Shown here: positions 27,481 to 62,000 of the stretch, in pieces | Numbering within the stretch: position 1 is the stretch's first letter | Layout: every line of letters starts with the position of its first letter | From: Amphiscolops sp. MND2022 | Taxonomy: Eukaryota | Reading direction: 5' to 3' | Length of the DNA stretch: 64,000 nt | Assembly (NCBI GenBank): GCA_964187785.1 | Contig: OZ076409.1 | Location: 29,018,001 to 29,082,000, forward strand | Notes under the pieces: model-generated | The model's database searches: none | Told to the model about the DNA's origin: nothing | What the model saw: only the letters and a program-made list of their open reading frames with translations | Position numbers and translations under genes: made by a program

Positions 27481-27849
27481 CAGCTCTGAGAATTTGTCAC
27501 CATAAAGAGGGAGTTTTTCAATAAAAATTCTTCTCTCCCACTTCTACGCGGAACCCCCCTTGACAACGGGGGGGGGTGTTTCCCGGTAATAATATTGAAC
27601 GAAACTTTTTCATGAAAAATTTCCATTTAGTTAGTACCGAACTCGATGACTAATATTCAACAACTAAAGGTTTGACCACTGAGCTATCCAGTCTTATTAG
27701 CAGGAGTTTTGAAGTGACTTATAAAATGAGTCATTTGATTCAAACAATTTCATTACGTAATCGAGATTTCAATACCAAGCATTGAACCAAGACACTTGAT
27801 TAATTCGTGAGACGAAATCAAGGCAGTTAAATATTGAGACGCATTGAAT

Positions 27850-28215
27850 TGGGGCGCTTTTGTCTGGGGCGCTTTTGTCTGGGGCGCTTTTGTCTGGGGC
27901 GCTTTTGCCTGGGACGCTTTTGTCTGGGACGCTTTGTCTGGGGCGCTTTTGTCTGGGGCGCTTTTGTCTGGGGCGCTTTTGTCTGGGGCGCTTTTGCCTG
28001 GGACGTTTTTGTCTGGGACGCTTTGTCTGGGGCGCTTTTGTCTGGGGCGCTTTTGTCTGGGGCGCTTTTGTCTGGGGCGCTTTTGTCTGGGGCGCTTTTG
28101 TCTGGGGCGCTTTTGTCTGGGGCGCTTTTGTCTGGGGCGCTTTTGTCTGGGGCGCTTTTGTCTGGGGCGCTTTTGTCTGGGGGGGCTTTTGTCAGGGCGC
28201 TTTTGTCTGGTAACC
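27850..28215. repeat. 15-bp minisatellite (TGGGGCGCTTTTGTC)n, ~24 copies; probably the expanded subterminal array of a Mutator-type end
   Basis: Direct tandem repeat ending in TGGTAACC, the same GGTTAC terminus seen on the neighbouring MITEs. Confidence 0.9.
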
Positions 28216-28531
28216 CCCGATTCGATAGGCTCTTAAAAACGACTTTAATTTTTAGTCGCCTGTTAAGAAAAGAGTCGACTATAGTCATGGCTTTCCGTTC
28301 GTGTTCTTTTTTCGATACACCTGAAGTGACCAAAATAGTTATACTAAAAGTTATACAAAGTTTTAAGGCGCCAAATTGTACATGTTGGCCCAGGGAACTG
28401 AATCAAATTATCTTTGACAGTTGTGTTTACATAGAAAAATTTCGTGATCTGTTCGTTTATTTCCTTTTCTTCGCTGCGTTTTTTAACAATAATGCTTGTT
28501 ACGGTAGACTCTGTTTATAATTTTTAAACGA

Positions 28532-37446: not shown

Positions 37447-40400
37447 TGTAGCGATTACCTATCGAGTACACGATTTCGAAAATTTCGATGAAAATTTCGT
37501 TCAAGGGACTATATCCCCTCTACTGAAAAGTCATATTCCGCTGGACGGCAGCGTGTCTTTATTCAAGTACCTGCCCACAGAATTGAAGAGAATTTGAGCA
37601 AAAGACTCCGGGCAGACCCCAACCGAACGAGAAGACTGCAGAAAAACACGGCCGCTGTCAGAAAAAGACTCAAATTTCTGTCAAAACGGACTGAACTTTG
37701 TTCTAGCCAGTGCTTTCTTCAGCGAAGCGTTACAAGACGCTGTGATTACCGAAAATGAGTCAATTGGCTTGACCAAGCATCCGTGCTTGTGTCCCCGGCT
37801 AATTGCTGCCTCAAAAGTGCTAATTATGTAGTAATTTTCGTATTTTCTTGTTGTAACAGCTCGTGAGCTACTTATTTCGATTTCCTGTGTAACTTCTAAA
37901 AAACTTGATTTTTCCTTTCCACCACTTGCATTTTTTAAAGGCTATCTAAGCGTTGGTTCCGAAGAAAAAGCGTAATGCGCGCTACTGTTAGCAATTACAG
38001 ACTGGATCAGGCCGGCGAGCACTTCTTAAGAAGCGGAATCCTCCTCTGACGGGACATTTCTTACCCGAAGGAGGCAAAATGGACTCATGGCCATGGGCGC
38101 CTGTCCCGAGCAAATACCCATGCCATGTGTTCCTCCTGCTCTTATGGTTACGGCGACAATGGTGAGAGCTTGTCGTTACATGGAGAACACATTTTATGGC
38201 GACCACAGAGGGATCGCTTCGAAGTGCTTCCCTTAATGGTTTTAAAATAGCCGACCCTCTGGTGATTGACGCCAAGTACGACCCGACTCTGATGGAAAGA
38301 AGAGAGAAGCAGAGTTTTTCCACGTTTTTACCCTGTGTGTGTTATTGAAGACTTCAAGCCCGGTGGATAAAGGTAAATCTTGTAAAAAAGCGCTGTATGT
38401 TGTGATTTTCATGCTTTTTCAGTAGTTGACAGGTAACGATCGAAATAGCCTACCCTCTTAACGGGTCACTCATAAAATTGGTCTAGCAAGCCGTTGGAAG
38501 GCTGCTAGAAGTGTTAGCAGGTGTTTTCTAGCCTTTTTCAGCTTTTTATGACCAATGAAGTGAGTGTTGAGAAGAGGACGATCCTTGCTCAGACGAATCT
38601 TACAATCTGCCGAAACGAGTTATACGACTCACCGATCCCATTTCTCATACAGGCAACCTAGAGGAATGAAATTTGGTGGAGACGTACTACAAATGCTGAC
38701 GTGTCTAATGGTGCAACCCGTTTGTCTCTAGCTGTTCTGGGTGATGAGCAAAAAGAACGAGAAGACACGACTCGTCAGTCCGGGTTGTATAATATTTTTG
38801 AGTCAGGTTGAAAAAATTTTTTGGGTTGCTCAAAATTTTGTGTACGACCACTTGCCAATGTTTTTACGAGCCTTCTGTAACTAGGTGTGTGCTTTTGCAC
38901 CTGTTTTGTGCGAAAAAAGCACGTTTTTTCATGTATTTTCGACGAAAAGTGCCAAATTTGGCCATTTTGAGGCGAAACACCTACATGAGCGCGAGCGCTC
39001 TTGGTGCTAGCCACACACCTGCAGAAATTAAATAAAAGTAGCTCAGGACTCTAATGAGTTCGCAAAAAACGCGACGAACTGCTCAAAGTTGCCCGAAAAG
39101 GCACTTAGTATAAATTTTGTGAGGAAAAAACCCCGTTTTTGGAAGACTGAACATTTTTAGCACTTTGAATTTGTGGGGGAACTTGTATAGAAGCTTTTAA
39201 ACACCCCCGTATGGTTGCAATTAGGTTGGGGTACACCTGCCGGTACCCAACAATACCCATTTTGGTAATTATAACCACTACTTCTTGAAAAAAGTTACGA
39301 GAACTGTGATTTTGAGGTTTTTCTATAGTACTCTTAGAAGAAACCCAATTTGACTATTGACGAACACTTTTACGCTTAGAATAGCCCCCGGGCTATTATT
39401 TTCAGTTTATTCAGTAAATTTAACGATCTACAGTGAAGACCACATCCCAAAATTCCTTTTCAGTGCTGAGAAAAGTAGAAAAATGCACTGAAAAACCTCC
39501 ATTCTCCTAAAATCCGGACTGTCTCTGAGCTAAGGTCGGGTCATTGATTCTTGGACCTTAGCCAAAAGGTGGTTGCATTTTCATAACCACCACTAAAAAT
39601 AACGCTAGTGCCGAAAATTTGGTGGACGTAACTTTCACCAAAGTCGAAAAAAGTTCTCTAACGTTTCAACTTCAGGGGACTGTAAAACTGCCGAAATAAT
39701 CCAAAACTGACGGACTGTCGGTGCCTCGTGTTTAACGGGCACACCTAATCGAGGGTTTATCCTAGTACTACGAGTAGTGGGGCAACACGTAGGTCCCATT
39801 TTTTTCAGCCCTACCACTTTTTGAGGTGACCCTCTTAGCCAATTTGTGAAAAAAGTAGTCCAAAATTGTGTTTTTTTTATGAGTGTTGTCCAAGTAAGGT
39901 CGGAACCTCAAATAAGCGTCCGCGCTTTCATTTGATGGTTTCACCGGCATTGTACACGCTCATCGACTGTAGCTACAAAGTCTCGTGTCAATCCAGCCGG
40001 TACTTGGTGAGAAAATAGAAAAAACGTACCACTCAAAAAGTTGGGCATAGAGGGTAATTTTTCAAATTTTTCCTGAGTGATCCGAGTACCTTAATTGAAA
40101 AACGAGGTTGAATTGCCGTTCATTTCTATCATTTGTACCAGATACTACGTTGTTTTGCAAATTTTGAGCCCGCTAGCTTTTTTTCAGTAAAGCACAATCT
40201 TGAAATAAGCATGAAAATTGATGTATCTTGGTGACTAAGGGTACCGAACGTCCGAATCAGCCTGAATCTTGAAATAAGAACCTTAGCTTAGATTTGATTT
40301 TGCTATCGTGTAGTACACCTACCACAAGGTCAGGTGGCCAATTTTTAAGTGTCTCCGACGATTAGACGTTGCGCTCGAGGCATCTTAGTCATTTATAAAG

Positions 40401-41129
40401 AAATCTGAAAAACTCAAAAATTGTCTAAAAACTCGATTGTTTGCGAATTAGCTCTTCCGCAAGCCCCAAACGCACGGTTTCCGGCCCCACAGCACGGTAT
40501 CAACGCGCTGTGTAAGTTTCACGCCGGTACGACCCCTAGATCGATTTTTGACTTTTTCGAGACGTGTGAAATCATGAAAACTAACAGTTTGCGTAACCTT
40601 TGGAATTCTATAACGAGAACATTAAGCCGCACGAACACCCGGCGATGCTCTAATCTTTCAAGAGGGGGGAGGAAGGACACGTCGCGACGCGCTGAAGCAT
40701 CGAAAACACCAGACCCAACGGGGTGCGAGACAAATCTCAGTGCAATATCAGACCTGACCTCAGACCCCAGGGAGGAAGATTGGCCAACTGATGACAGTTT
40801 CGTTATGGAACCCGATTTTTCAGACCCTATGTCAGACGACGCATCGGAGAAGTATCAGGCCAAGCCGGTCGCCAGGACTACCGATGATATCGGAGGTTCA
40901 GCTGACGAGACAGGAAGTCAGACCCATACTTCCAAATGGTTGCTGGACTTACCCAGCGCTGTCACACCCTATGGTGTAGATGACACTGGAGCGTGGCCTA
41001 ACTCCAACAAGACGAATGAAGATGAAGTAGAAATGAGCTGTCTGAATGCGACGGGGCAATTCAAAGCTCCAAGCACTGCGAGTGAGGGCACAGCTCATAC
41101 CACAGAAGTACTCCAACAAATGTCCTACA
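37447..41129 (+). repeat. Inferred 5' LTR of copy A (~3.7 kb), followed by a candidate PBS TGGGGGC at 41131
   Basis: The left end is fixed by three junctions. The right end is inferred from CTACA (inverse of TGTAG) followed after 1 nt by TGGGGGC, the first 7 nt of a tRNA-Pro-type PBS. It is unconfirmed because no complete 3' LTR lies in the window. Confidence 0.55.
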
Positions 41130-44100
41130 TTGGGGGCATGGATTATGCCAGGGCACGTCTTCAAGAAGCTACGGCTCCCCGAGCATCTGGGAAGGGTAAG
41201 CAAGTACGGCCCCCAGCTTTATTAGCACTAACCAGTACTACAGGACCTCATGGCGATTCACGCTCATCCTCACCCTCATCAAAAGCTGCATCTGCCCGAT
41301 CTTCGGCATATCGAGCCGTACATGAAGCAGCGAAAGCGCGCAAAGCTCTATTAGATGCTCAGATAGGCGTGAAGCAAGCTGCTTCACAACTGTCTGAGCG
41401 CAAGGCAAGGTGCGATAGAGAGCACCAGTCAATAATGGAGGAAATAGAAGCCGTGCAGGCTGAATTGCGAACATCAACTGAGCGACAAGCGCAAGGACAT
41501 GAAATTCAGGCCGCCCGAATGGATGCTATGGGCTATCGAATGGCCGAAATGAAAGACATGGTGGCCAAAACAGAGGTGCGCATGGAAGCTCAAATGCAAG
41601 AGGTATGTTCACAGATACAAGCGATGGGCACTATGTTGAAAAATATCCAACCTCGACCCGCACCAGCGAGCAACACTATCAAAGAGTTGCTGCAAGACAC
41701 TGACGTATCACTGCCAAAACCCATGAAAAGCGTCTCCCTCAAGCCAAAAGAGAGTGTGACGACTGCAACAAACCCATCTGGCTCTAAACAGCACTTGGCG
41801 AGGTACGCGCCTTTGCCACAACCTCTGGTATCAAATGGAGAGGCCGCATCAACCTCGACGAAATTTATCCCGTCTGCGGTATCAACAAAATATGTTCCAC
41901 CCACGACCAAAGCTCACAAGAAAGAACCAACGTGCGAGGTGATAACTATCGACACTTCAAGCATGGGTATCACCGGCCTGCGAGAGCCCACACGCACAAA
42001 CGAGCTAACTGAAGTCACCAGCACTTTCCAAACAGCAAATGCAACTTTGGGAGAATCAGCTGCAGAATTCCAAACCGCGGACGATGGGTTGCCCCCGGGC
42101 AACCCATGCGCCAGCAGCACCCGACGCCGAGAAGTGACTATCCCCGAGAACACCGATGACTCTGTCAACTCAACGCGAGGCAGCAGTATCCCGCCACCAG
42201 CTATCACTGAAGAAGCGCCTATATCACCGGAGCAACTCAGGTTTACCGAGGCAATATCCAAGGCCATGTCCAAGGAACTGGCGCCGCTAATTGCTAATCA
42301 AGATCAAACTAGGGTCCGCCCTACGGTGTACAAAGGCACTAAAGATGGTACTGTCGATGGATGGCTTCCAGTGATGAAGCGATTTCTAGAAAGTGTGCAT
42401 GCAAAATCACCAAAGATCGACAAAGCCTGGGCTATCATCGACCACCTGGAAGGGGAGGCGAGAAATTATATAATCAACAAATCTGAACCTGAACGAGACG
42501 AGCCCGACAAGGTATTCTCTCTCTTGGCCAGCAGGTTTGGAACCGGTGGAAACCGCATGCACGTCAGGCAAACCTTCATGTCTCGTGTCCAACAGGAAAA
42601 AGTGGATTGGATGCAATTCTTGGACGCATTGGAAGGTCTGCGCACCCAAGGTTTCCCAGACGAGCCTATCACTACACGTCGTTATGAAATCCTGCAACGT
42701 TTTATAGATGGCGTCAATGACTCGACGCTGCGACAAGAGTTGGCCGTGGTGTACGCTGCGGAGACGTATTTGACTGAGCCACCAACTGTAGAATCCCTGA
42801 GATTCACCACGAGACAATTGCAACGGCATCGCCCAAACACGTCAAAACCTTACGACCCAAGGTATGCAATGAGATCGAGGCCTAATCCTTTCGTGCCAGG
42901 GAAATTGGTTCACCCGGCACGAGGCCTACCACAAAATGTGCTGCCTCCAAACCAAGGACAGCGAGAGGCAAAGCCCCAGATGGCCCCACCAGGCCCTGCA
43001 TCGGTAAAACAGGCTCCTGCACAGCAGCAACCAGCGAGAGTGATTCCCCAAGGAGCATGCTTCAACTGTGGACTACCGGGTCACTTTGCGAGGGAATGCC
43101 CACATCGAGACCTAGCAAGGAAACCCGCGGCTCGCGCTGCACCCGAAGAGCGAGTGAACCTGTGTGAGAACAATGTGGCCTCTGCATGTTCTGGCCCCGT
43201 ATTCTGTGTTAACTGTGGCATGACCGAACACTCTGCATCACAATGCCAAAATATTCCAGTACATGAGGATTTGGCCTACATCCTCTGGGCTGAACAGCCA
43301 TCTGCTTCTCAAACGATGAGTGACAGTGAAATGGTACTCATGCTACGCCCTGCTGAAGCCGCTCACGTGGCGACGCCTCTTACCGTCACATGTGGCAAAA
43401 TCCAAATCCAGACGAACCCAGAGCCAACTACTTTTAATCCCTCGGGACGCACTATCATGTCTGCCCGACTACTGTTGGCGGTCGAGAGAGAAACCCGCCC
43501 AGAACTCACCATAGACGCTCTGATAGAAGAGATGACCGCAAACGAGAATTGCCGGCAACTGACTCTGCCCAAACCGGAAGAGTGGCAAGTGAAAGGTGTC
43601 ACTTCGACGTATCATGCCTATTCTCCGATTCCAGTCAAAGTCTGCATAGATGGTGTTGACATGCGTTTTGGCGCCACTACTATTACTGATGCGTTTCCTC
43701 CTGGAATCTGCTTGGGACCGCAAGAGCTGCGCTGCTATAACATTGATGCTCAAGAACCAACTGGTGAAGCGAGAATCGATGAGCGTGCGTCGCTCGTGGT
43801 TTCATTCGTGGTTCCCGATGCTGCTCCCGTGCCATTACGTGGTCTAATAGACACTGGATCAGGAGTATCCATCCTCACCTTCTCAGCCTACAATCGAGTC
43901 GCCGTGCGCACTGGCACACTCTTACGACCTTATGGTATTGACTTATATGCCGCGAATGGGAAGACGATCAAAACTTTTGGTCTAGCGGAGAAAGTCAAAT
44001 TCCAATTGGGAGGCTATGAATTGGAAACTAACTTCGTGGTAGTTGATGACGCTATGGGAGTGGAAGACTTCCTCCTGGGCAGAAACTTCCTAAGAGCTTA

Positions 44101-47100
44101 TCAGGTCTTGGTAGACCTAACCGCGATGAAGGTCATTGTCCGAGCTCCCTCTGAACCGGTGTGGTACCATGCCCACGCGCAGGTAAGTAACGAATCGCTC
44201 AATTCGTCGGTACCGATTGCACAGGACGTAGTGTTGCAACCTTTTGAACGCGCGATACTACGCGCTAGATTGCTTGTAGACAACTTAGAACCTTTCATGT
44301 TTCGAACCGTGCTAATCAATTTTCAAACACCTAACCGAATGTTAAAAAACGCCATCTTTTTAGAGGACACCGTGGCGACCGTGGGGGAAACTGGTTTCCT
44401 TTACGTCAGTTTAGGAAATCTCACCAGCAACGTACAGCGGATCAAAAAGGGCACCCTTTTGGGAACCGCGGTACCCGTGACGATGGTTCATAAAGCCATC
44501 CCCCAAATTGTCCCCGGACAATCAAATGAAACTCTGCAGTCAAATGCAAATTATGTTTGTAAAATTTACGAACAGATGAACCTTGATTCTTCTTCTGAAT
44601 ATAGTTCTTCATCTGAATTTGAGTTTTTGTCCTCTACCGAACCGTCAGAACTAGGCTTGTCCGAGCGTGAAATAAAAAAACGAACCGATCCGGCGCTAAT
44701 GGCTCCGATACCGGGCCCGGAAGCACAACTCGACGAAGTGCGCGGTTTGTGGGGCTCGACCGCCAGCGACACGCTCGATAAACTTTTAAAAGAGTTTGAC
44801 GATTTGTTCATGAAGTACAAGGCTGACATTGGTAAGTGTAAAATTGCTAAGCACCCGGTGGAAGTAGAGCCAGGGGCTATACCCCACCGCGAAGGTGCAC
44901 GACGAATGTCGCCTGACAAGGCAGAACGTGCTAACCAAGGAGTCCGTGACTTGCTAGCTTTGGGAATGATACAACCTTCCCTATCCCCTTGGGCGAGTGG
45001 AATTGTTATGGTCAAAAAGAAGAGTGGTGAATTGCGATTCTGTTGTGACTTTCGACCACTTAATGAAGTGACCATCAAAGACGCTTATCCCTTGCCACGT
45101 ATCGATGAGAGTCTATCCCGATTGGGCAAAGCCAAAATCTATACCAGTATTGACTTGGCATGGGCATTCTGGCAAATTCCTGTCCGAAAAGCCGATCGTC
45201 AAAAGACTGCCTTCGCTTGTGAACTTGGGTTATTTGAGTGGCGGCGTATGCCTTTTGGTATGTGTAACGCATCAGCAACATTTCAACGGGCAATAGCGCG
45301 AGCGCTACAAAGAATAGTGAACCGCGAAGGAAGTATGGTTATGGCCTATATCGATGACATTGTGATTGCTACCGAGACCATCGAGGATCACATGGATAGA
45401 CTACGCGAAGTATTCCAATGCCTGCGTGAGGCCGGCTTCAAAATGAGAGTCTCCAAGTGTGATTTTATGAAACCGGAGATCAAATATTTGGGCCGAGTTG
45501 TATCCGCAGATGGTATCAAGCCAGATCCCAAAGCTGTCGCCAAGCTGAAAAATTGGGATATCCCGCGAACCAAAACTGAGTTGCAAAGTTTCTTGGGTTT
45601 TGCCAACTACTATCGGGATTTTATCCCATGGCACGCAAAGCTAGTTGCCCCTTTACATGCGATGACGGGCGCAGGCTCTCCAATTTTATGGGGGGAGGAG
45701 CAGCAGCGAGCCTTTAACAGCATCAAAGTGGCACTAATGGAAGCCACTGCTCTGGCGCAACCCGACACTGAAGGCGAGTTTGTTCTTGACACCGATGCTA
45801 GTGGTGTAGCTATATCAGGTATTCTTCACCAATGGCAAGGACCACCTGAGAGTCGCAAATTGCGACCGATTGTATTCGGAAGCAAAAAGTTAACCTCTAC
45901 GCAAGCAAAGTATGGAGCCCCAAAACTGGAAATGTACGCTGCATACTATTTCATCTTGAAAAACCACAGCTATCTCTGTCCACGGAAATTCACACTGAGG
46001 GTCGACAATCAGGCCTTATCCTGGCTAAAGACATATTCGATGGATCAGGCGATTATTGGTCGATGGATTATGGCTCTTGAAAAATATCACTTCGGTATTG
46101 AGCACCGACCCAGAACGCAACATCGAAATGCTGATGGTCTTAGCAAACGAACAAATGACTACAAAAAACACGAAAAGCAATTAAAGGGTTTACCCGCAAT
46201 TGCAGACAAATGGGATTTCCTATCACAAGAGGAATACAACAAACTCCCGCTAGCCCCATGGTTTGATGTCCACGGACGTGTGATACCAAATCACCCAGAA
46301 TTGCCTGCACACTTGCAGAGGTTGGCTAGCAAAAGTTCACCCGAAACCACAGTTGCCGCTCCCACGCGAAGGAGCGGACAAAGCAAACGAAGTGCGATCA
46401 TGCGCGACGAAGCCATGAGAGCACCCCTACCTACATTGCCAAAACCAGAATTGGCACTGCCTGCCGAACTTTATCCAGAGTATCCTGAGGATTGGTTGGA
46501 ACTGACCGAGGAATATCAACGAGACTATTTGCTCCCCACGCATGCTGCTAACGTACCATCAAGAACCACTTATCCACTGACGGAAAAGCAAGCAACTAGC
46601 ACTGCACCAGAGCACGTAAAACAAGCCGCGTTTGTGGTAAGCAGCATATCGATGGAATTGCATGAACATGCTAACACAGTCCATGGGTTGAAAGATCTAC
46701 TACTGGCACAAAACCGTGACGTCCACGTCTTGGCTATCAAGAAATTGGTAATGCAAGAGTCAATAGATCATGACATCTTTCCGGAAAATGTACGTGCCTT
46801 TGCCAAAAACTACCACAAACAGAAGAAGAACCTTCTGCTGGTAAACGCCAACGGGGTTTTGTGTGTAAAGTACTCCAAAAGTCAAAGAGCTTTGCATGAA
46901 CGCCCCTGCATGATAGTGATGCCCCAATTGTATCAGCATGAGATATTGTTCAAGGCCCACGACGCGATGGGACATCAGGGCATCGCGAAAGTCTTGGCCA
47001 GAATTCAAGAGCGCCACACTTGGCCAGGCATCCGCCGCACCATTGGACAATACGTCAGCCAATGTATCACTTGTCAACAAGTACGTGACAAGCCTGGTGA

Positions 47101-50100
47101 TGTACGCTTTCACTTGAAAAATATCCAAAGCGGCTATTTTAATGAGCTAGTCCAATATGACCACATGAAAATTTGTCCCTCTGACGATGGTAACACAGGG
47201 ATCTTGGTTATTATTGATCATTTCTCTAAGCTCGCAGAAGCTGTGCCGTGCAACCACGATGAGTATGATGCAGCGACCACTTCAAAATTGTTGTTGCAGA
47301 AATGGTTTGCCCGCCATGGAACGTCGACGAGAATGCAGTCAGACAATGCTCCCAACTTCACCGCGGCAGTATCTGCTGAGTTTATGAAAGCCGCCCAAGT
47401 GACCAAAGTAACCTCAACTGCTGGCCACCCCAAGACTCAAGGGTTGGTAGAGCGACAAAACCGAACGTTATTACCCTACTGCGCGTATTCTGCTCTAGAC
47501 GAATGCGTGATTGGGACCAGTATTTAGATGAAGTCATGGGTGCATACAACTCCACACGTCATGCCACTACTGGGTTCTCCCCGTATATGCTGACCAGAGG
47601 CATGGAAAAAGCTATACCCCTGACTTTCTTGTATCCCGAATTTGCAACTCAGTCATTCGAATCACACGAAGCCTATGTGGAACATGTGCTGGCTCGACAG
47701 CAAGAGATTCATGACTTAGTCCGTCGTAACACGCATCAAGCCCAGCAGCGACAAAAGTTGAAATACGACCGAGCAATTCGTGCTAAAGCCTATGAAGTGG
47801 GCGAACCTGTTTGGGTATTCTGCCGATACATTCCTCAAAAAGGATCTCCTAAATTGATGAGAGCATGGCGTGGTCCTCACAAAGTAGCACGAGTGCTACA
47901 AGAGGGACGCGTCTACATACTTGACACTGGTCAGAAAGTACATTTCGAACGATTGAAACCGCACCATGGTGGTCCAGCAGAATGGGCAGCTGTTCCTGCG
48001 CATAACGGCGAGGTTGCTATCATCATGGACCCTGACCCAGAACAATCCCACGAGGAAGTGAGAGACGATGCTTCGCAACCTTCTTATCATGCGGAGGAAC
48101 CAATTTCAGAAGCCAGTAATGCCTCTTTGCCTTCTCGACAAAGACATTGGATGGACACACGGTTGCGCACACGCATGCGCGCTGGTGGCAGCCGCCTACA
48201 TTATCAACAATTTGACTATTCTTCGACTGAGTCTGACGACGAACGTTCTGATGTACTCCTGTCGAGTGTTCAGGCTAATCCCGATGAGAGTGCTATCTTG
48301 TCATCACATGTGGATGAACCTGCGCCTATTCCCGAAATACCAATAAAACCACTGCCTGCTATGGAGGCTCTATTCTCAGAGAATGAAGCAGTGCCCGACG
48401 TCTTGGATATCGCCCCAAATCCTACTATCCACGCACCCACCAAAAGTGCCGGCACCTCTCTGACCGGTACATCCGCCCCATTATTGACAAATCCATCTCT
48501 TACGGATATGTTGAGTAACTTTCCCATTTGGCCCCTAATCGATGACAATGTTCTCAACCCCACCTTAGACGACAACGGTGCTGAAGCACCAATGACCAAT
48601 GACGAAAAGGGATTTATTCCCCCTACGACAGTTCCCACCAACAACAACGCAGCTACTACCACGAAACTCTCCAATGCTCCTAGAGGGCATAGACCGCGGG
48701 GACGTCCGCCAGGCAGAGCGAGGCCGCGAGCCTCGCTGCCACGTGGCCACCAACAGAGAGGTGCTATTAGAGGCGCTCGCAAAAGAGGCCGTCCCAGAGG
48801 AAGACCTCCTCGTACAACACACGCCAGACCTAACACCTCTACCCGTGTTCGTCGCACTCCATCTGTGGACACTGACTCTTCTGCCCCTAGCGCGGCGGTT
48901 ACCTCAGATCAAGCAGCACCGCCAGAATCAACCAACGCTCGCTATGGCCTGCGACGCAATCGTTTTCCCAGATATCGTTGCGGAACATGTGGCCTACGAG
49001 ACTGCGAATGTAACTACATGGTCCACGCGGGCTTCCCAATTAAACCCCAGGGAGTCCTGCTAGCACGTGAACAGGAGAAATCGCTTCCAAGCGGCACGGT
49101 TGACTGTTTGGTTATTCGAGCCGAGAAGACTTATACTGGGCTACAACGCAGCGACACTCCATATCCTGTGGACTATATCCTATCCAAAATGAAAGATTCT
49201 ACGATAGCAAAGGCCCCGTGCCCAAGGTTCAAGGAGTGGACCTATGATCTTATTGGTTTGGAATTCACATTACCTATCACTGTTCCCCCCTTGCCTACAA
49301 ATATTGCTTTTGGTCCTTTCAACTATGAACGAGAGCCTATCCAAATGGTACGCTGTATTCCTGCTGACCTTTTGTATGACAAGCACAACGTCACCGCAAA
49401 ACCAGGAGACGTTTATCAGCCTGCAACCAACTGGTGGCTACTAATTACGGCCAAACAAGTGTCCGACCGACCTGGTTCATCCCAATAACTTGAACACCTG
49501 TCTGGAGAGTTTGCGGACAATGGCCTCTCCTGATAGAATCACTTGTTTCCACACCATAGACCTGTATCGTGGTAAAATTAAGTTTGAATGGTGGCTGGAA
49601 CTTATCATAGCAGTCTTATCGAACTTTTCACGAATCCGATTCCTGGACAAATGGACGCACTCATTTCCTAGTCCTGTATCACTCCAATCAGCCCTACACG
49701 CACTGGATACATGGTCCAGGGCTAACATTGATAATCAATCGTTGCCGCGATCTGTGTGGCAAGACTTGGGCGCCATTAAAGGCCTCCTTCCGAACACATG
49801 TGACGATGCTCTCTCCAATGACCCCGGACGAGAGTTAGTATACCATGGAGCCGTGAGACCTCAATTGGTTGACTTTGTGCAGTATGCCAATACGGACTTC
49901 CTGCAAACTCCCCATCATATTGTTTTATGTTGTCCCGCAAACCTTGAGACTAATTCTGCCGCTCTTCGTTACGTCATTCGTGAGCATGGTGCAGATGCAA
50001 TCTTTCAACTTCGACCGGAGGTTGGCATTATTGTGACGCTACCCACATCTTTGATAGACGGCCATCCTCAGACTATCCACCTTTTAATCACACGAGCTAC

Positions 50101-50338
50101 ACCTCGCTGCCCTATGCTCGCTGATATTCTCTTTGGATGTCTTGATCATTTGAAAACGTTACTCGAGCGCTTAGAGGCGATAGAAGTACACTTTGCCATC
50201 ATTGATCCTGAGCGCCCAATACGTAATCTTTTCGACTTTTATACCTGTTTGATGAACGTATTCGCTGACACGCCCCTGACCGTCATTCTTCACGATCGCG
50301 TTTACGTATCTATTGCAAGCGTCGCTAGCTTTCCGTAG
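40574..50338 (+). CDS. Gag-Pol polyprotein (~3250 aa reconstructed; 1-nt deletion at ~47474, 4-nt duplication at 49463-49470)
   Basis: ATG at 40574; capsid-like VYKGTKDGTVDGW..HLEGEARNYI; knuckles CFNCGLPGHFAREC (43058) and CVNCGMTEHSASQC (43205); protease LIDTGS (43850); RT YIDD (45347); RNase H DTDAS..DN..ADGLS; integrase HDAMGH..CITC, YDH..SDN..VERQNR, continuing as ..GAYNSTRHATTGFSPY..WRGPH in ORF 47503-49488 and then in ORF 49490-50338. Confidence 0.93.
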
Positions 50339-50555
50339 AACTTTTTGTTTTTCCTTTCGCTCTTTTTTTTGTCCGCTCGATTAAGTTTAGGTGAATCGAC
50401 ACGGAGTTTACTTGAAACAAATACGTTACCTTTTCTTTTAATGTTAATTTGTGATATCCTATTACTTCCCCTGGTATTACCCTTAAAATGACCTATGGTG
50501 TTACCCTACTATCAAGTGTGCTACAATCGACCTGCACTCTTTCAGAGTTTCCGTC

Positions 50556-53500
50556 ATGAACCAAGGTGACGATGAAAGCAACTACGTCCCTCCAAGGTTT
50601 TCAGATGACTCTCCTGCCTTGGGGCAACGCGTTTACGACACTGCGCGTGTCCAGCGTACCCCACAAATTGCTTTCATTCGAGACAGACTCGACCAAGGTC
50701 TGTCGCCAGCTACAGTAGCCGGGGTGGCGGCGATCATAGCCCAGATGGAGTCACAAGTGCAAGCCCCTATGCTGACGATATCTATCACTTCAGGCTTTCC
50801 TGGGTTCCAGCGATCTATGACGTTTCAAGATGGAGTGTGGTACGGCCATGATCTCACACATCACTTTACGGATGATCGTGCAGCGATCTCATACAGTCCT
50901 GCGAATGGCGGAGTCCATCAGACCAGATCTCTACAGATCCCTTCTTGCCCGCCTCCACCTCCACCGCCACCTCCTGTATCAATGCCACAAACAGTAGTGC
51001 GTGCAAGCACTTCTGCTCCTGCAGTACCTAACTTGTCCAATCAACCAATGGCAGAACAAGCAGTTATCTCAGCACTGCAAGCAGTAGCTATCAACCCTAA
51101 TTACGCTGATTTCATGCGATCCATGGAGCAGTGTTGGCCTGAACTACGCCAAATTGCTCTGCCCACTGTCACTATTCGCAACGAAAACGCCACTTTGAAC
51201 CAAACAAGTCAAGATGCTATCACTATTCCTCACGTCAATCCTCAGTCTGAACAGCCAGGGCACTCCCGCACCGTGACTGTAGAGCGCAGTCGTTCGCCTT
51301 CCCGCTCTTCTCAAAAGGGGGGAGGAGAGAGCCGCCCTGCCTCCAGAAAACGCAATGACCGTTCTCCAACAAGAATGAGTGCTCAACAACCACTAACTGC
51401 TCGTGACAGCCCCTCAAGCAAGCCACCACCCGACAAAAAGATCTCCAACGAGAAGGCCACAACCTCCAAGACGCCAAACCAAACAAAATCAAAAGTGTCG
51501 GAAGCATCCGTGCTTCCCTCACCCCAGCGACAACCAAACGCAACAGGCGAACAACAAGGACTGCCGCAGCCACCATCCACGCAGTCTACAACACGCGAGT
51601 CGCTGGCTCAGCGAACGATTTCTAAGCCTTCTACATCAAGACAGCCACAAACGGAGCAAACTGTGGGTTATCAAGGCACCCCTGAACCTCAGCGAACTGT
51701 CAAGGACATAATGGGTGATTACCCAGGATTGAAGGTAACCAACAGTGGTCCAACTGGAACCCCACTCCGCAAACAGGCAATTCAACGCCCAACTAAGAGG
51801 ACCTTTACAAAGCAACCGACGTACCTGAGTCCAATGCAAAACACAAAGGGCACGCTGATCACCAAGGACTCCCGACGTATCTGGGAATCGGCAGTTATTG
51901 TATCACCCGAATGGCTGTTTGAAAAGAACATGTGTCCTCCGAATGACGAAGAGCATGCGAAATTGAAGAAGGCGAATGTATCTGTATTCATGAATCGTCC
52001 AATTCGCCCCGACCACACCCCTACTAATGAGCCGCCATGGCTAGGGAAGGCAATGAATATTCTGCCAAACGTAGAAGACAACTACTTGGACGCCCTCAAC
52101 ATTGACCTTCGTGGGCAATTCGCTGACCGATACTTCCTCAACGCTGGAGAGACCTTCGAGATCAACCCGCGGTACGCCCGTGACCTCGAAGCCCAGCTAC
52201 CAATGCCAAAAGAAAGGTTGCAGCGTGCGCGCTTCGCCTTACTTGTAGACTCGACCTTCCTCAAAAATATCCCTATTGACAATGTGCTGTCAGACGTGAT
52301 GGTTTTCACTCTACCGCTGTCACGTATCCCCGAGATGGCTGAAGTGTTGGTCACCATGTTTGACCCCGAGATGACGGGGACCTTCAAAGAGCCACCCCCA
52401 CGCAGAGTGATCATCAGTAACATTCTCGATCACATGGCCTGTGAAGGACTAATGGCCCAGATCGCGAACGTTGAAATCATAAATCCAACTCCAGCACAGC
52501 GAGCAACAGTACGCAACGCAGCACTGAATGTGGCCCGAGCCATGGAAAAAGCCCAAAATATCCTAAAGAATAAACTCAACGTGCCAGTCTTGTTTGTAAC
52601 ACCCCCAGGTTTCTGCCAGTGGCATCCCGCCTTGCAGAGATTTATCTATATGGTAACAGAAATTTGCAAATGTAGAGAAATAGACTTTGCGATCTGCGCG
52701 CCCAATATGCGGATCAGCTCCGACGACTTGCGTCCCTCCTGGCTTTCCTACATGGGGTACGTTGCCTCAGTGTCTAAAGTGCTACAGTCAGTGGAAAAGA
52801 CAGGGAACGCGCAGCTGACAATCGATGATGCCATCTATTTTGATCACGGCACTCGTATGGGCTTGTTAGTATTCAACAACAACGGAGAAAGGCGAGTCCC
52901 AGAACCTAGCACGGCTGAATGTGAGGCAATCCGCCTGAATAACTGGATGGAGCGCGCGCGCTCCTCCGGTGGAAAGACTTGCATTAAAACTGATCTTTCG
53001 GAAGTCACCGCCATAATGAGCAAAATCCCCAGCGACCGAGAAGTGGAACGAGCCATCCCGCGAGTTCAATTTGCCCAGGACCTCACTATTGACCAACTAT
53101 CAGTGGGAATGAGGTATATCGCTGCAAAATTGACGAGCGAGACTCAGGCTGAAATCCAAGCCTTCAGCAGCACCTACGACGCTTGGTACCAGCGGCTGCA
53201 AACTACCACCGTAGCAGACATTGCAAAAGAACTTGGGATGTCAACCGACCAATTTGCCATCTGTTTGGGATTGGGTTGGAGTCCCGATGTTATTCGAGTT
53301 GAGTTCGGCTTGGACGAACACTGGTTGATCGAAATCAGCAAGATTATCGGCACCATGCAAGTAAACGAACTCTTTGCACTGATACTCACCTTCGGGCAGA
53401 AACGCTTCGTAGCTGGCCCAATGATGATATTGACCGACCTGGTTACTGAGTGTAATCTGGAATGGCTATTTTCGTATTTAGTGATTGCGCGAGGCAATAT

Positions 53501-54924
53501 CTCAGGCCTCACCGCCTTAGCCAAGCTGCTACAACGAAAAGACGCTCAGGATTATCCCGCTCACCTGGAGCGCATGACAACTTCGTTATATCACTGGATA
53601 TACTGCAGTCTGGTCTTTGCCTCGGGACTTTTCGTGGGCGTAGATAAGCACCAACCATTATATGACGGACGTCAGCTGGTGACCGAGGTAGCTGGATTTC
53701 TGACACCTAACCAGCTGGCAGATTTCACTTTGGCTGAAGTCGAAGACCTTGTACCGGTGTTAGCACCCGTGCTAACTCCGATATTTGGCCCAACCGGGAT
53801 ACTTCGCTATCCCACCAAGCCTCTGCGACTCGCCTGGGAGACACCAACAGTATCCATCCTGACTTTTCTGAAGAATGTAAAACCGTACAACTATCAGCAA
53901 ATGCTTGAACGCGGGCTGTTCCTGCTAATACCCCGCATGTATACCACCATAAAGAACGAAACGCAGCAGGACGAAAACCTGGCCGGCATTCTCAAAGCCC
54001 GGACAAAGAAGGCGTGCCCTTTACCTCGCGAATACGGCCCGGTGAATTGGTACAATTCGCCCCTAGATCACCATGGAATCCCACAGCGATTCAATTGGAG
54101 TTTCGCACACCTCAGGAAGTACGTGACCGAATGCGTACAAGCCATGGGCGGTCACACAAACCAGGGGTATAATTTTCAGATGATCAAGCTTCCAGCCAGA
54201 CTGGCGAGGACCCATCGGCTATGCCCGGGCTAAGCCAATCAGCATGGTTGAGAAAGGCTTTAATGAGCAGTACGCCTATCGCGATCACTACAAACTAGGC
54301 GTGTGGATGTCAAGGACCCTGGAGGAACGCCAAGGGCGCCTAAAAGGCTTGATCATCCCTCCACAGACAATGCCTGTTTGAAATCCAGAGGCGAGGGTCA
54401 CTATGGGAAGCGACATGCCAGCGGAGACCTGCTACCATGTCATGGAACTGCTGAGTGATCCCCTCGGACCCGAATGGGAAGCCTCCAGGCAAATTATAGA
54501 ACATGAAAACAGGGACAACTGGTCCAGAGCCTGCGGGCTCTGGGGCCGACCTGATCTACGCCCGAAACTCAGTGCCAAGCAGAAACGACCCATTGCCACC
54601 CGCAATAGACCGCTAGATCTACCACACCTGTTTAATGCCAGTAGATTGGATGTGCAGATCCCAACCTCCACGTCGACCACAAGTTCTGCCAATGTTAGCG
54701 GCTCAGCCAATGCAGCGCAAGAACATTCGCCAGAAGTCTCAACTCCCGTAGCTGCAGAAAATGGCCCTAGTGGCTCAAACACGACTCCCAGGACCCATGA
54801 AACTGCCAGCGCCGAACCAAGGCCAGTCCTGCGAGAAGGAAATGTGCGAAGAGGATCCCTGTCCGAACCACAACCGAAAGCCGACGTCTCCCCCAGAGCG
54901 CGTCACTTCTCCGCCACCCAGTAA
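50556..54924 (+). CDS. Accessory ORF2 of the retrotransposon (~1450 aa reconstructed): Pro/Ser/Gln-rich N-terminus, SGNH-like domain, helical C-terminal region
   Basis: A 1225-aa open frame continues after a CCAG duplication (54192-54199) as LPDWRGPIGYARAK..., through one TGA (54379, probably TGG), into ORF 54403-54924. It lies between pol and the 3' LTR. Confidence 0.85.
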
Positions 54925-56018
54925 AACAAACCTAACATTATTGCCATTCTGTTTTAAACTTCAATAGTCCTGTGCTAAATGAACCTTTGCGAAACCTCAT
55001 AGTTTCAACCACTGTTGTTGCTAAACTTTGATTTTGGAAGTGCCAATTGGTCATGGGTAAAAACCTCCAAGTGGAGATGAAGCCCCCGGGCTTCATCCTC
55101 CTCATTATTCCGTTTTGGGACCGGCAACCCAACCATAAAACTACGCCTTTGCATTGCCTTAGTTAAATGCAATATTCAATTTGCAATTTGTGTTTGCAGT
55201 TAGTGCTTTTTCAAGCTACCTTATGCTACCTTATGGATGCGCTGTGCGCACTCCGTGCTCTGAATTTTCGGTGCTATTACACCCTTTTAGTTACTAGTTA
55301 TTGTTTACACTGTTGCTATTGTCGAAAAAGACAAAAGGAAAAAAATGAAGGAAAAGGAAACAGAAGGAGAGAGATGAGAAATGGATAGAATAAAAAGATT
55401 GATGGACCTCGACCATTGTTTTTTCTTTGAGTTACCTGATAGGATTGAGAGTAAGTCTCGCAAAAGAAATTTTAAATTGACTGTACTTATTGGTTGATTT
55501 TATGGCAACTGCTTATCAAAAGAACTTTTATCAAACGCCAAGCAGTGCGAAGCTCCCGAGCTTCGGAAAATAAATTTTGAACTGTCATGTGATGGTCGTT
55601 GACCTTAAACCAAGTTTTAACACTAACGGCAATAAAAAATTTTTTTTTGTATGAAAGGCCGAAAAGAAATTTTAACGCCTGAATTGCTCACGACAGGCTA
55701 CAAAAAGTAATAACCTTGCCGTATAAGATTTGTATACGAAGTTGTATTGATTTGATCAAAATGCAGCAACGCTGGGTCAAAAACACTTCCACGAGGCCAA
55801 CTTGACGACGTCCCAATGAACTGCCCAGCGCTACTTGATGTGCACTCTACCTCCTCAGTGGGACATAGATGACCCTGGGTAAAGACTCGATAATGCCAAC
55901 CCACACTTGACGGGGACGTCAAGACTACACCCCGGGGAGTGTATGTAGCGATTACCTATCGAGTACACGATTTCGAAAGTTTCGATGAAAATTTCGTTCA
56001 AGGGACTATATCCCCTCT

Positions 56019-59000
56019 TGTAGCGATTACCTATCGAGTACACGATTTCGAAAATTTCGATGAAAATTTCGTTCAAGGGACTATATCCCCTCTACTGAAA
56101 AGTCATATTCCGCTGGACGGCAGCGTGTCTTTATTCAAGTACCTGCCCACAGAATTGAAGAGAATTTGAGCAAAAGACTCCGGGCAGACCCCAACCGAAC
56201 GAGAAGACTGCAGAAAAACACGGCGCTGTCAGAAAAAGACTCAAATTTCTGTCAAAACGTACTGAACTTTGTTCTAGCCAGTGCTTTCTTCAGCGAAGCG
56301 TTACAAGACGCTGTGATTACCGAAAATGAGTCAATTGGCTTGACCAAGCATCCGTGCTTGTGTCCCCGGCTAATTGCTGCCTCAAAAGTGCTAATTATGT
56401 AGTAATTTTCGTATTTTCTTGTTGTAACAGCTCGTGAGCTACTTATTTCGATTTCCTGTGTAACTTCGAAAAAACTTGATTTTTCCTTTCCACCACTTGC
56501 ATTTTTTAAAGGCTATCTAAGCGTTGGTTCCGAAGAAAAAGCGTAATGCGCGCTACTGTTAGCAATTACAGACTGGATCAGACCGGCGAGCACTTCTTAA
56601 GAAGCGGAATCCTCCTCTGACGGGACATTTCTTCGCCGAAGGAGGCAAAATGGACTCATGGCCATGGGCGCCTGTCCCGGGCAAATACCCATGCCATGTG
56701 TTCCTCCTGCTCTTATGGTTACGGCGACAATGGTGAGAGCTTGTCGTTACATGGAGAACACATTTTATGGCGACCACAGAGGGATTGCTTCGAAGTGCTT
56801 CCCTTAATGGTTTTAAAATAGCCGACCCTCTGGTGATTGACGCCAAGTACGACCCGACTCTGATGGAAAGAAGAGAGAAGCAGAGTTTTTCCACGTTTTT
56901 ACCCTGTGTGTGTTAATGAAGACTTCAAGCCCGGTGGATAAAGGTAAATCTTGTAAAAAAACGCTGTATGTTGTGATTTTCATGCTTTTTCAGTAGTTGA
57001 CAGGTAACGATCGAAATAGCCTACCCTCTTAACGGGTCACTCATAAAATTGGTCTAGCAAGCCGTTGGAAGGCTGCTAGAAGTGTTAGCAGGTGTTTTCT
57101 AGCCTTTTTCAGCTTTTTATGACCAATGAAGTGAGTGTTGAGAAGAGGACGATCCTTGCTCAGACGAATCTTACAATCTGCCGAAACGAGTTATACGACT
57201 CACCAATCCCATTTCTCGTACAGGCAACCTAGAGGAATGAAATTTGGTGGAGACGTACTACAAATGCTGACGTGTCTAATGGTGCAACCCGTTTGTCTCT
57301 AGCTGTTCTGGGTGATGAGCAAAAAGAACGAGAAGACACGACTCGTCAGTCCGGGTTGTATAATATTTTTGAGTCAGGTTGAAAAAATTTTTTGGGTTGC
57401 TCAAAATTTTGTGTACGACCACTTGCCAATGTTTTACGAGCCTTCTGTAACTAGGTGTGTGCTGTTGCACCTGTTTTGTGCGAAAAAAGTGCGTTTTTTC
57501 ATGTATTTTCGACGAAAAGTGCCAAATTTGGCCATTTTGAGGCGAAACACCTACATGAGCGCGAGCGCTCTTGGTGCTAGCCACACACCTGCAGAAATTA
57601 AATAAAAGTAGCTCAGGACTCTAATGAGTTCGCAAAAAACGCGACGAACTGCTCAAAGTTGCCCGAAAAGGCACTTAGTATAAATTTTGTGAGGAAAAAA
57701 CCCCGTTTTTGGAAGACTGAACATTTTTAGCACTTTGAATTTGTGGGGGAACTTGTATAGAAGCTTTTAAACACCCCCGTATGGTTGCAATTAGGTTGGG
57801 ATACGCCTGCCGGTACCCAACAATACCCATTTTGGTAATTATAACCACTACTTCTTGAAAAAAGTTACGAGAACTGTGATTTTGAGGTTTTTCTATAGTA
57901 CTCTTAGAAGAAACCCAATTTGACTATTGACGAACACTTTTACGCTTAGAATAGCCCCCGGGCTATTATTTTCAGTTTATTCAGTAAATTTAACGATCTA
58001 CAGTGAAGACCGCATCCCAAAATTCCTTTTCAGTGCTGAGAAAAGTAGAAAAATGCACTGAAAAACCTCCATTTTCCTAAAATCCGGACTGTCTCTGAGC
58101 TAAGGTCGGGTCATTGATTCTTGGACCTTAGCCAAAAGGTGGTTGCATTTTCATAACCACCACTAAAAATAACGCTAGTGCCGAAAATTTGGTGGACGTA
58201 ACTTTCACCAAAGTCGAAAAAAGTTCTCTAACGTTTCAACTTCAGGGGACTGTAAAACTGCCGAAATAATCCAAAACTGACGGACTGTCGGTGCCTTGTG
58301 TTTAACGGGCACACCTAATCGAGGGTTTATCCTAGTACTACGAGTAGTGGGGCAACACGTAGTTCCCATTTTTTTCAGCCCTACCACTTTTTGAGGTGAC
58401 CCTCTTAGCCAATTTGTGAAAAAAGTAGTCCAAAATTGTGTTTTTTGTATGAGTGTTGTCCAAGTAAGGTCGGAACCTCAAATAAGCGTCCGCGCTTTCA
58501 TTTGATGGTTTCACCGGCATTGTACACGCTCATCGACTGTAGCTACAAAGTTTCGTGTCAATCCAACCGGTACTTGGTGAGAAAATAGAAAAAACGTACC
58601 ACTCAAAAAGTTGGGCATAGAGGGTAATTTTTCAAATTTTTCCTGAGTGATCCGAGTACCTTAATTGAAAAACGAGGTTGAATTGCCGTTCATTTCTATC
58701 ATTTGTACCAGATACTACGTTGTTTTGCAAATTTTGAGCCCGCTAGCTTTTTTTCAGTAAAGCACAATCTTGAAATAAGCATGAAAATTGATGTATCTTG
58801 GTGACTAAGGGTACCGAACGTCCGAATCAGCCTGAATCTTGAAATAAGAACCTTAGCTTAGATTTGATTTTGCTATCGTGTAGTACACCTACCACAAGGT
58901 CAGGTGGCCAATTTTCAAGTGTCTCCGACGATTAGACGTTGCGCTCGAGGCATCTTAGTCATTTTTAAAGAAACCTGAAAAACTCAAAAATTGTCTAAAA

Positions 59001-62000
59001 ACTCGATTGTTTGCGAATTAGCTGTTCCGCAAGCCCCAAACGCACGGTTTCCGGCCCCACACCACGGTATCAACGCGCTATGTAAGTTTCACGCCGGTAC
59101 GACCCCTAGATCGATTTTTGACTTTTTCGAGACGTGTGAAATCATGAAAACTAACAGTTTGCGTAACCTTTGGAATTCTATAACGAGAACATTAAGCCGC
59201 ACGAACACCCGGCGATGCTCTAATTTTTCAAGAGGGGGGAGGAAGGACACGTCGCGACGCGCTGAAGCATCGAAAACACCAGACCCAACGGGGTGCGAGA
59301 CAAATCCCAGTGCAATATCAGACCTGACCTCAGACCCCAGGGAGGAAGATTGGCCAACTGATGACAGTTTCGTTATGGAACCCGATTTTTCAGACCCTAT
59401 GTCAGACGACGCATCGGAGAAGTATCAGGCCAAGCCGGTCGCCAGGACTACCGATGATATCGGAGGTTCAGCTGACGAGACAGGAAGTCAGACCCATACT
59501 TCCAAATGGTTGCTGGACTTACCCAGCGCTGTCACACCCTATGGTGTAGATGACACTGGAGCGTGGCCTAACTCCAACAAGACGAATGAAGATGAAGTAG
59601 AAATGAGCTGCCTGAATGCGACGGGGCAATTCAAAGCTCCAAGCACTGCGAGTGAGGGCACAGCTCATACCACAGAAGTACTCCAACAAATGTCCTACAT
59701 TGGGGGCATGGATTATGCCAGGGCACGTCTTCAAGAAGCTACGGCTCCCCGAGCATCTGGGAAGGGTAAGCAAGTACGGCCCCAGCTTTATTAGCACTAA
59801 CCAGTACTACAGGACCTCATGGCGATTCACGCTCATCCTCATCCTCATCAAAAGCTGCATCTGCCCGATCTTCGGCATATCGAGCCGTACATGAAGCAGC
59901 GAAAGCGCGCAAAGCTCTATTAGATGCTCAGATAGGCGTGAAGCAAGCTGCTTCACAACTGTCTGAGCGCAAGGCAAGGTGCGATAGAGAGCACCAGTCA
60001 ATAATGGAGGAAATAGAAGCCGTGCAGGCTGAATTGCGAACATCAACTGAGCGACAAGCGCAAGGACATGAAATTCAGGCCGCCCGAATGGATGCTATGG
60101 GCTATCGAATGGCCGAAATGAAAGACATGGTGGCCGAAAGAGAGGTGCGCATGGAAGCTCAAATGCAAGAGGTTTGTTCACAGATACAAGCAATGGGCAC
60201 TATGTTGAAAAATATCCAACCTCGACCCGCACCAGCGAGCAACACTATCAAAGAGTTGCTGCAAGACACTGATGTATCACTGCCAAAACCCATGAAAAGC
60301 GTCTCCCTCAAGCCAAAAGAGAGTGTGACGACTGCAACAAACCCATCTGGCTCTGAACAGCACTTGGCGAGGTACGCGCCTTTGCCACAACCTCTGGTCT
60401 CAAATGGAGAGGCCGCATCAACCTCGACGAAATTTATCCCGTCCGCGGTATCAACAAAATATATTCCACCCACGACCAAAGCTCACAAGAAAGAACCAAC
60501 GTGCGAGGTGATAACTATCGACACTTCAAGCATGGGTATCACCGGCCTGCGAGAGCCCACACACACAAACGAGCTAACTGAAGTCACCAGCACCTTCCAA
60601 ATAGCAAATGCAACTTTGGGAGAATCAGCTGCAGAATTCCAAACCGCGGACGATGGGTTGCCCCCGGGCAACCCATGCGCCAGCAGCACCCGACGCCGAG
60701 AAGTGACTATCCCCGAGAACACCGATGACTCTGTCAACTCAACGCGAGGCAGCAGTATCCCGCCACCAGCTATCACTGAAGAAGCGCCTATATCACCGGA
60801 GCAACTCAGGTTTACCGAGGCAATATCCAAGGCCATGTCCAAGGAACTGGCGCCGCTAATTGCTAATCGAGATCAAACTAGGGTCCGCCCTACGGTGTAC
60901 AAAGGCACTAAAGATGGTACTGTCGATGGATGGCTTCCAGTGATGAAGCGATTTCTAGAAAGGGTGCATGCAAAATCACCAAAGATCGACAAAGCCTGGG
61001 CTATCATCGACCACCTGGAAGGGGAGGCGAGAAATTATATAATCAACAAATCTGAACCTGAACGAGACGAGCCCGACAAGGTATTCTCTCTCTTGGCCAG
61101 CAGGTTTGGAACCGGTGGAAACCGCATGCACGTCAGGCAAAACTTCATGTCTCGTGTCCAACAGGAAAAAGAGGATTGGATGCAATTCTTGGACGCATTG
61201 GAAGGTCTGCGCACCCAAGGTTTCCCAGACGAGCCTATCACTACACGTCGTTATGAAATCCTGCAACGTTTTATAGATGGCGTCAATGACCCGACGCTGC
61301 GACAAGAGTTGGCCGTGGTGTACGCTGCGGAGACGTATTTGACTGAGCCACCAACTGTAGAATCCCTGAGATTCACCACGAGACAATTGCAACGGCATCG
61401 CCCAAACACGTCAAAACCTTACGACCCAAGGTATGCAATGAGATCGAGGCCTAATCCTTTCGTGCCAGGGAAATTGGTTCACCCGGCACCAGGCCTACCA
61501 CAAAATGTGCTGCCTCCAAACCAAGGACAGCGAGAGGCAAAGCCCCAGATGGCCCCACCAGGCCCGGCATCGGTAAAACAGGCTCCTGCACAGCAGCAAC
61601 CAGCGAGAGTGATTCCCCAAGGAGCATGCTTCAACTGTGGACTACCGGGTCACTTTGCGAGGGAATGCCCAAATCGAGACCTAGCAAGGAAACCCGCGGC
61701 TCGCGCTGCACCCGAAGAGCGAGTGAACCTGTGTGAGAACAATGTGGCCTCTGCATGTTCTGGCCCCGTATTCTGTGTTAACTGTGGCATGACCGAACAC
61801 TCTGCATCACAATGCCAAAATGTTCCAGTACATGAGGATTTGGCCTACAGCCTCTGGGCTGAACAGCCATCTGCTTCTCAAACGATGAGTGACAGTGAAA
61901 TGGTACTCATGCTACGCCCTGCTGAAGCCGCTCACGTGGCGACGCCTCTTACCGTCACATGTGGCAAAATCCAAATCCAGACGAACCCAGAGCCAACTAC

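Follow-up and report, generated by a model that had tools for sequence, protein, structure and literature searches.

The 64,000-nucleotide stretch of the Amphiscolops sp. genome analysed here (the window) contains an LTR retroelement of approximately 18.5 kb whose single polyprotein ends in two domains of predicted macro-type fold; the host genome measures 1.07 Gb. The element has LTRs of 720–734 bp and an interior of approximately 17.8 kb, and all its features lie on the forward strand. The 5′ LTR, of 734 bp with TG...CA ends, lies at 37447..38180. Gag-Pol follows in two pieces, the first of which (40409..47527) comprises zinc knuckles, protease, reverse transcriptase (RT), RNase H and the HHCC and core domains of integrase, with CX2CX4HX4C knuckles at 43058 and 43205, the protease at 43850 and the YIDD motif of RT at 45347. 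The second piece (47380..49488) holds the end of the integrase core, the integrase C-terminal domain with a GPY/F-like WRGPH motif at 47866, a low-complexity linker and the start of the first repeat. Between integrase and the repeats lie a basic patch of pI 12 with three AT-hook-like RGRP motifs (48697..48807; one to three such motifs per tail in five tails) and a CxxCxxxxCxC motif that may form a small metal site (48979..49011; retained in all five tails examined); the Pfam AT_hook model matches weakly in 4 of 70 family rows, with a best E of 0.2. Repeat 1 (49294..49654) and repeat 2 (49862..50302), found where the initial annotation had placed their motif blocks, are separated by a conserved segment with two predicted helices and low pLDDT (49655..49861), and the Gag-Pol stop codon follows at 50336-50338. 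Beyond it are a second open reading frame of 1248 aa without a Pfam match (50487..54233) and a 75-bp LTR stub followed by the full LTR that opens a second, internally deleted tandem copy (55944..56752).

The domain order of the long frame (zinc knuckles, protease, RT, RNase H, integrase) is that of Gypsy, and among solved structures the nearest to its RT is that of Ty3 (E 8.5e-69, the best of 55 PDB hits). With the TG...CA termini of the LTRs and the GPY/F-like WRGPH, these features identify a Ty3/Gypsy element, an assignment made from the PDB hits of RT, domain order and motifs. The two CCHC knuckles (43058-43246) are approximately 50 residues apart, and some 200 residues separate them from the protease motif. 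A primer-site-like TGGCG(A/C)C occurs within 38181-38212, approximately 15–16 bases past the LTR end and after a T run, and such an offset site, not adjacent to the LTR, is present in all four families that carry the domain pair (L171, L179 and L181 for the others). The first half of the second ORF is proline-rich and disordered and its second half is folded-looking; a related start was found in family D (L063, L064). An SGNH esterase identity was considered for this ORF and rejected, the blocks being visible by eye only, with neither a Pfam nor a PDB match. The tandem array (55944-64000, together with L061 and L062) consists of the element, the 75-bp stub, an LTR and a copy with two internal deletions, and closes with an LTR plus a further partial LTR. 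Elsewhere the window contains a 15-bp tandem array (27790-28233), an AT-rich dispersed repeat in tandem units of 425 bp (22897-24276) and, across positions 1-37000, many short inverted-repeat elements.

The window copy is broken twice, in integrase at approximately 47471 and in repeat 1 at approximately 49463, and its repeat 1 is spread over two frames. Among 29 other copies, both repeats lie in a single open frame in 26, and the remaining three stop at other positions; the four extra bases at approximately 49463 set the window apart from every one of the 26 copies in which spacing is measurable (in three it is not). Read-through of 49463-49490 in other copies, which the initial annotation had anticipated, is therefore borne out, and since these copies lack the extra bases and stay open, the stop at 49486-49488, whose conservation would have counted against the domain pair, is not conserved among them. 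Because other copies read through in frame, we rejected this stop as a conserved feature or a programmed frameshift; the break at 49463 belongs to the window's dead copy alone. Searching at the protein level with a copy whose frame is naturally open returned 4,364 candidates, and the best 114, a sample biased to intact copies, were scored: the tail of 357 residues is stop-free in 108, and a single frame of at least 3,200 aa is present in 18. Families with tails approximately 43–60% identical likewise have frames of approximately 3,200–3,300 aa, and an integrase-family Pfam domain accompanies every one of the 57 long database hits. P0146 and P0244, two distant relatives, reach 36% or less against the host genome, hence the tandem module, judged from these sequences, probably occurs in further genomes too. 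Its position had been described as the C-terminus of integrase, and it does share the frame of integrase and stand at the end of Gag-Pol, but it starts approximately 440 residues past the integrase C-terminal domain.

LTR ends are TG...CA in all four tandem-domain families examined, namely that of the window and families B, C and D. A 3-bp target duplication flanks 28 of 32 rows of paired and solo LTRs (flank sets L142-L170, L191-L218, L252-L280 and L181/L182), distributed as 8/8 for the window family, 11/13 for B, 1/1 for C and 8/10 for D; the exceptions in family D are one mis-called 3′ LTR and one mismatch, and one extra family B pair is also unmatched. Of the 31 rows that a script scored, none has a duplication of 4–6 bp, and controls with wrong partners gave chance matches in 2/56, 4/90 and 6/156. 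A 3-bp duplication has been described as the mark of Troyka elements, other LTR elements having 4–6 bp (PMC12440569). Troyka resembles the tandem clade in this respect, in its single Gag-Pol and in its domain order, but according to its published description it has CG...CG ends, LTRs of 100–400 bp, an interior below 7.7 kb, a CX2CX8-10HX4C knuckle and no GPF/Y motif (PMC12440569), whereas the tandem clade has TG...CA ends, 720–734 bp LTRs, an interior of approximately 17.8 kb, CX2CX4HX4C and a GPY/F-like motif. Set against that description, membership of Troyka is ruled out by termini, knuckle and size. Copies are evenly spread through the genome (KS p 0.58; per-chromosome p 0.16; 104 of the 114 scored copies, on 12 chromosomes of known length) and the 32 flanks share no target repeat. 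Hence nothing here indicates strong targeting, and both chromosome-scale targeting and a common target repeat were discarded as explanations. Neither a tandem macro pair nor a TG...CA Gypsy element with a 3-bp duplication was found in the literature searched, Repbase Reports and supplements lying outside its scope.

Structure prediction bears out the macro fold that had been proposed for both repeats. Folded alone, repeat 1 reaches a pLDDT of 89.3, its top eight Foldseek matches are all TARG1 entries (E 5e-6 to 1.2e-4), and its structural alignment with TARG1 gives Z 13.3 and an rmsd of 2.6 Å over 115 residues; the model of repeat 2 aligns with TARG1 4j5r at Z 18.5 and 2.0 Å over 136 residues. 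On these models both repeats have a predicted minimal macro alpha/beta fold of the ALC1/TARG1-like class, with TARG1, DarG and Poa1p as nearest relatives. The best structural match of both is human TARG1 (OARD1, C6orf130; 4j5r, 4j5s, 2eee), from which they differ in their low identity (11–19%), in the replacement of its Lys84/Asp125 dyad and glycine loops, in their occurrence as two copies and in being part of a retrotransposon polyprotein. A model of the two domains together has a mean pLDDT of 70.7 and a pTM of 0.51, so the relative placement of the domains is not fixed by it; its Foldseek matches are PARP14 macro 1-2 and TARG1, at E of approximately 1e-8, with the PARP14 tandem reader at the top. 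Sequence searches detect far less. Pfam gave no macro hit on pieces of the window, and none of 70 family members exceeded the curated cut-off of Macro PF01661, P0244 reaching E 0.3 and an intact element-borne domain of the same genome (L075) passing; a phmmer search of PDB with a single tail sequence found no match, and a family profile reached OARD1 at E 0.74 at best (5/6 hits, repeat 2 only). ESM Atlas returned leads at 0.85–0.90, mostly to unnamed clusters, one of which has Macro in 14% of its members, and a viral fold library gave macro-type matches of a general kind, none of them specific. Host-type macrodomain exons were also recorded at three loci (L071, L072, L073), two being MacroD-like and one macroH2A-like with an upstream H2A-like exon.

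TARG1 positions were mapped onto the repeats through L075, an intact element-borne single domain (E 1.2e-26 to TARG1), with rows thinned to 80% identity. TARG1 has the catalytic residues Lys84 and Asp125 (PMC9411070, PMC7050489), and the substitutions G43E, I44E and G123E are each reported to abolish its ADP-ribose binding and activity (PMC5928194). In repeat 1 the first phosphate loop (Gly41–Ala45) is absent together with its helix; the repeat has Ala or Ser at K84 in 39/44 rows, Gly at D125, Asp at G121 in 37/42 rows and mostly Tyr at G123 (24/41), with an aromatic residue or His there in 34/41. Repeat 2 has a remodelled pocket, represented in the window by Ala at 49958 (G43), Arg at 50093 (K84), Asp at 50204 (G121), Glu at 50210 (G123) and Pro at 50216 (D125); across the family, G43 is Ala in 42/46 rows, the catalytic K84 a conserved Arg in 44/48, G121 Asp in 34/40, G123 Glu in 29/41 and D125 Pro or Ser in 33/41. 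Both loop glycines are retained together in no thinned row of either repeat, and Gly123 is kept in 3 of 121 repeat-2 rows, among them the distant P0244. Judged by the alignment, both repeats would lack the Lys84/Asp125 dyad of an active TARG1 hydrolase as well as the glycines (G43; G121, G123) of an ADP-ribose binder. The loss of the GCGLD loop, claimed for the window copy by the initial annotation, extends to family rows of both repeats, and the Lys/Asp dyad is lost as well. This loop is also the phosphate-binding loop, so the residues that had been found missing belong to binding as well as to catalysis. Of the earlier proposal that the repeats are non-catalytic binders of ADP-ribose, the first part stands, the catalytic residues being gone, but the second is weakened by the replacements at G121, G123 and G43 and by the loop lost from repeat 1. 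Both repeats have probably lost ADP-ribose binding, as far as alignment and predicted models can indicate, and a role as decoys would require just this binding.

Single TARG1-type domains in LTR elements are already known, macro ORFs having been reported in fish ERVs (Basta 2009, cited in PMC4977317); what is new here is the duplication of the domain and the loss of its pocket. Recognisable single TARG1 domains are common in the genome (1,380 candidates, of which 150 were scored). In 16 elements sampled (L125-L140) the domain follows integrase in 14, lies between RNase H and integrase in one, and follows protease in an 834-aa frame in the other; motifs are partly decayed in several single-TARG1 elements (L126, L132, L127-L131). 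These elements resemble the tandem clade in fold class and in the position of the domain, mostly behind integrase, but they have one domain, mostly motif-intact, a distant RT and, in the family tested, 5-bp target duplications (in four of the six pairs that could be scored, out of eight) versus 3 bp. The five tandem rows cluster in a 20-row RT tree, with support of 92/88, below the starred level, and are distant from the 14 rows with the domain behind integrase. That tree gives no support to a descent from this genome's single-TARG1 families of the post-integrase kind, and naming a donor from the domain tree was abandoned because its branches are too long.

The repeats are nearer to each other in sequence than either is to TARG1. 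An hhalign comparison of repeat 1 with repeat 2 gives P 98.3 and a score of 84.9, against a block-shuffle maximum of 45.8; repeat 2 against TARG1-like sequences gives P 96.4 and 59.2 (maximum 19.5), and repeat 1 against TARG1-like sequences gives P 7.7 and 21.7, within the range of shuffles (maximum 22.05). The domain tree unites both repeats against 19 TARG1-like rows with an SH-aLRT of 98, subject to a long-branch warning. Duplication within this lineage is the simplest reading of these comparisons. Asp at G121 (37/42 rows of repeat 1, 34/40 of repeat 2) and Arg at L124 (33/41 and 32/40) are common to both repeats, and this shared D-x-x-R in the second loop suggests that the pocket was altered before the duplication. 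An ancestral element would have acquired an ADP-ribose eraser of the TARG1 type, like other lineages of retrotransposons in the genome; the phosphate loop of this eraser would have become D-x-x-R, the domain would then have been duplicated, and repeat 1 may later have shed a further loop and helix.

Comparison with three sister-family copies (82–84% identity) gives the tail a dN of 0.09–0.11 and a dS of at least 1.76, at or near saturation, hence an omega no higher than 0.06; repeat 2 has a dS of approximately 1.8 and an omega of 0.05–0.06 in the same comparison. Purifying selection therefore acts on the tail, and it constrains the linker too, with an omega of 0.11 (a partial alignment gives 0.25). 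In the deepest family the repeats are 41–44% identical, versus 67–69% for the integrase end. The repeat domains have a pI of 6.1 and 5.3, versus 9.8 for the intact element-borne domain, which argues against a nucleic-acid-binding patch, and these acidic domains lie after the basic patch with its RGRP motifs and after CxxCxxxxCxC.

We propose, with a probability of roughly 0.4, that the TARG1-fold pair, probably captured and pocket-less, serves to bind protein and thereby holds the integration complex on a chromatin factor of the host. The Gag-Pol of this Gypsy clade ends in two domains of predicted TARG1 fold that have lost their catalytic residues and likely their ADP-ribose pocket; the acidic pair would bind a protein partner, and the adjacent AT-hooks would grip DNA, at the place where chromoviruses carry a chromodomain. 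This tether reading draws on the predicted fold, the frame shared with integrase, the duplication, the loss of the pocket, selection, acidity and the precedents of SUD and the chromodomain. The SUD-N/M macrodomains are reported to recognise PAIP1 and nucleic acid of the G4 type, but not ADP-ribose (PMC11837046). As described there, coronavirus SUD (SUD-N/M, Mac2/Mac3) is a tandem of macro folds in a viral polyprotein, blind to ADP-ribose and repurposed for binding, as is proposed for the pair; it is an analogy only, as the structural match is much weaker (Z approximately 8), and SUD binds G4 whereas the pair is acidic and TARG1-derived. Chromoviruses, also of the Gypsy group, likewise end Pol with an extra folded domain, which has been proposed or shown to guide integration, the MAGGY chromodomain being reported to target H3K9me (bioRxiv 2021.11.30.470311); the present clade differs from them in having no chromodomain (there is no Pfam chromo hit, and the fold is macro) and no targeting pattern. 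A chromatin tether had been suggested by the initial annotation and is still plausible, but it would probably not act through ADP-ribose, the pocket residues having been replaced. Several observations count against the tether: the linker of approximately 440 residues between integrase and repeat 1 would let protease release the pair; the copy distribution is even and there is no common target repeat; constraint extends to the linker, and in the deepest comparison the domains are far less conserved than the integrase end; repeat 1 does not rise above shuffles against a TARG1-like profile; and Arg is conserved in repeat 2 where TARG1 has its catalytic Lys, the state of the pocket being read from alignment and models.

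The first of these observations leads to a second and more doubtful account, in which protease cuts the pair free as an accessory protein that, by analogy with SUD, might act in particle assembly, in translation or in blocking host silencing. The long, low-complexity linker leaves room for cleavage, a chromosomal targeting pattern is absent, the coronavirus pair offers a precedent (PMC11837046), and TARG1 mutants blind to ADP-ribose are reported still to bind RNA (PMC5928194); against this, the domains are acidic, and the neighbouring AT-hook-like motifs point to DNA. It is unlikely that the repeats, though non-catalytic, have kept the ability to bind ADP-ribose or poly(ADP-ribose) and, as readers or decoys, steer integration to ADP-ribosylated chromatin. 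Such binding is opposed by the deleted first loop of repeat 1 and by the residues at Gly123 (Glu or Tyr), Gly121 (Asp) and Gly43 (Ala), equivalent TARG1 mutants are reported to fail to bind (PMC5928194), and an acidic surface disfavours a polyanion, although the predicted fold of repeat 2 follows TARG1 closely (2.0 Å), Arg at Lys84 and D/N-L past the third strand are both conserved in this repeat, the PARP14 tandem reader heads the matches of the two-domain model, and Gly123 survives in P0244.

We regard as improbable the suggestion that the pair is a part of the integration machinery that shapes the intasome to cut with a 3-base stagger: 3-bp duplications do accompany the pair in all four tandem-domain families examined and 5-bp duplications the single-TARG1 family (4/6), but this sets one clade against one control, and shared ancestry explains the link equally well. 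The stagger of integration is set mainly by the integrase core. Troyka also duplicates 3 bp, and the cited passages of its description mention no macrodomain (PMC12440569). No more credible is that repeat 2 is an enzyme of altered chemistry with repeat 1 as its helper, for although SCO6735 is reported active with neither TARG1 catalytic residue (PMC9411070, PMC7050489) and the conserved polar Arg277, Asp314 and Arg317 line the old pocket of repeat 2, SCO6735 keeps the equivalent of Gly123, where a change to Glu costs it substantial activity (PMC9411070), and repeat 2 has Glu there naturally.

A 3-bp duplication with TG...CA ends falls outside the rule of 4–6 bp as published (PMC12440569), hence LTR finders set to 4–6 bp are expected to miss or mis-trim such elements, and since Pfam misses the pair, similar cases are probably unannotated. 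Tentatively, and with odds against so full an account, the tandem clade may be an undescribed lineage of giant Gypsy elements (approximately 18.5 kb, TG...CA, 3-bp) in which a captured anti-ADP-ribosylation enzyme has become a twin pseudo-enzyme that remains attached to integrase, where it would direct or shape integration. If true, this would be a new kind of integrase accessory domain, arisen in parallel to the SUD pair of coronaviruses. The usual interpretation of macrodomains in viruses and mobile elements is that they are counter-defence enzymes. In this genome, several lineages of retrotransposons have an intact, enzyme-like domain, and a very abundant clade has a duplicated, pocket-less one that selection maintains; partly decayed intermediates are present too, and together they would provide a natural series for the transition from an eraser to a pseudo-enzyme with a new job.
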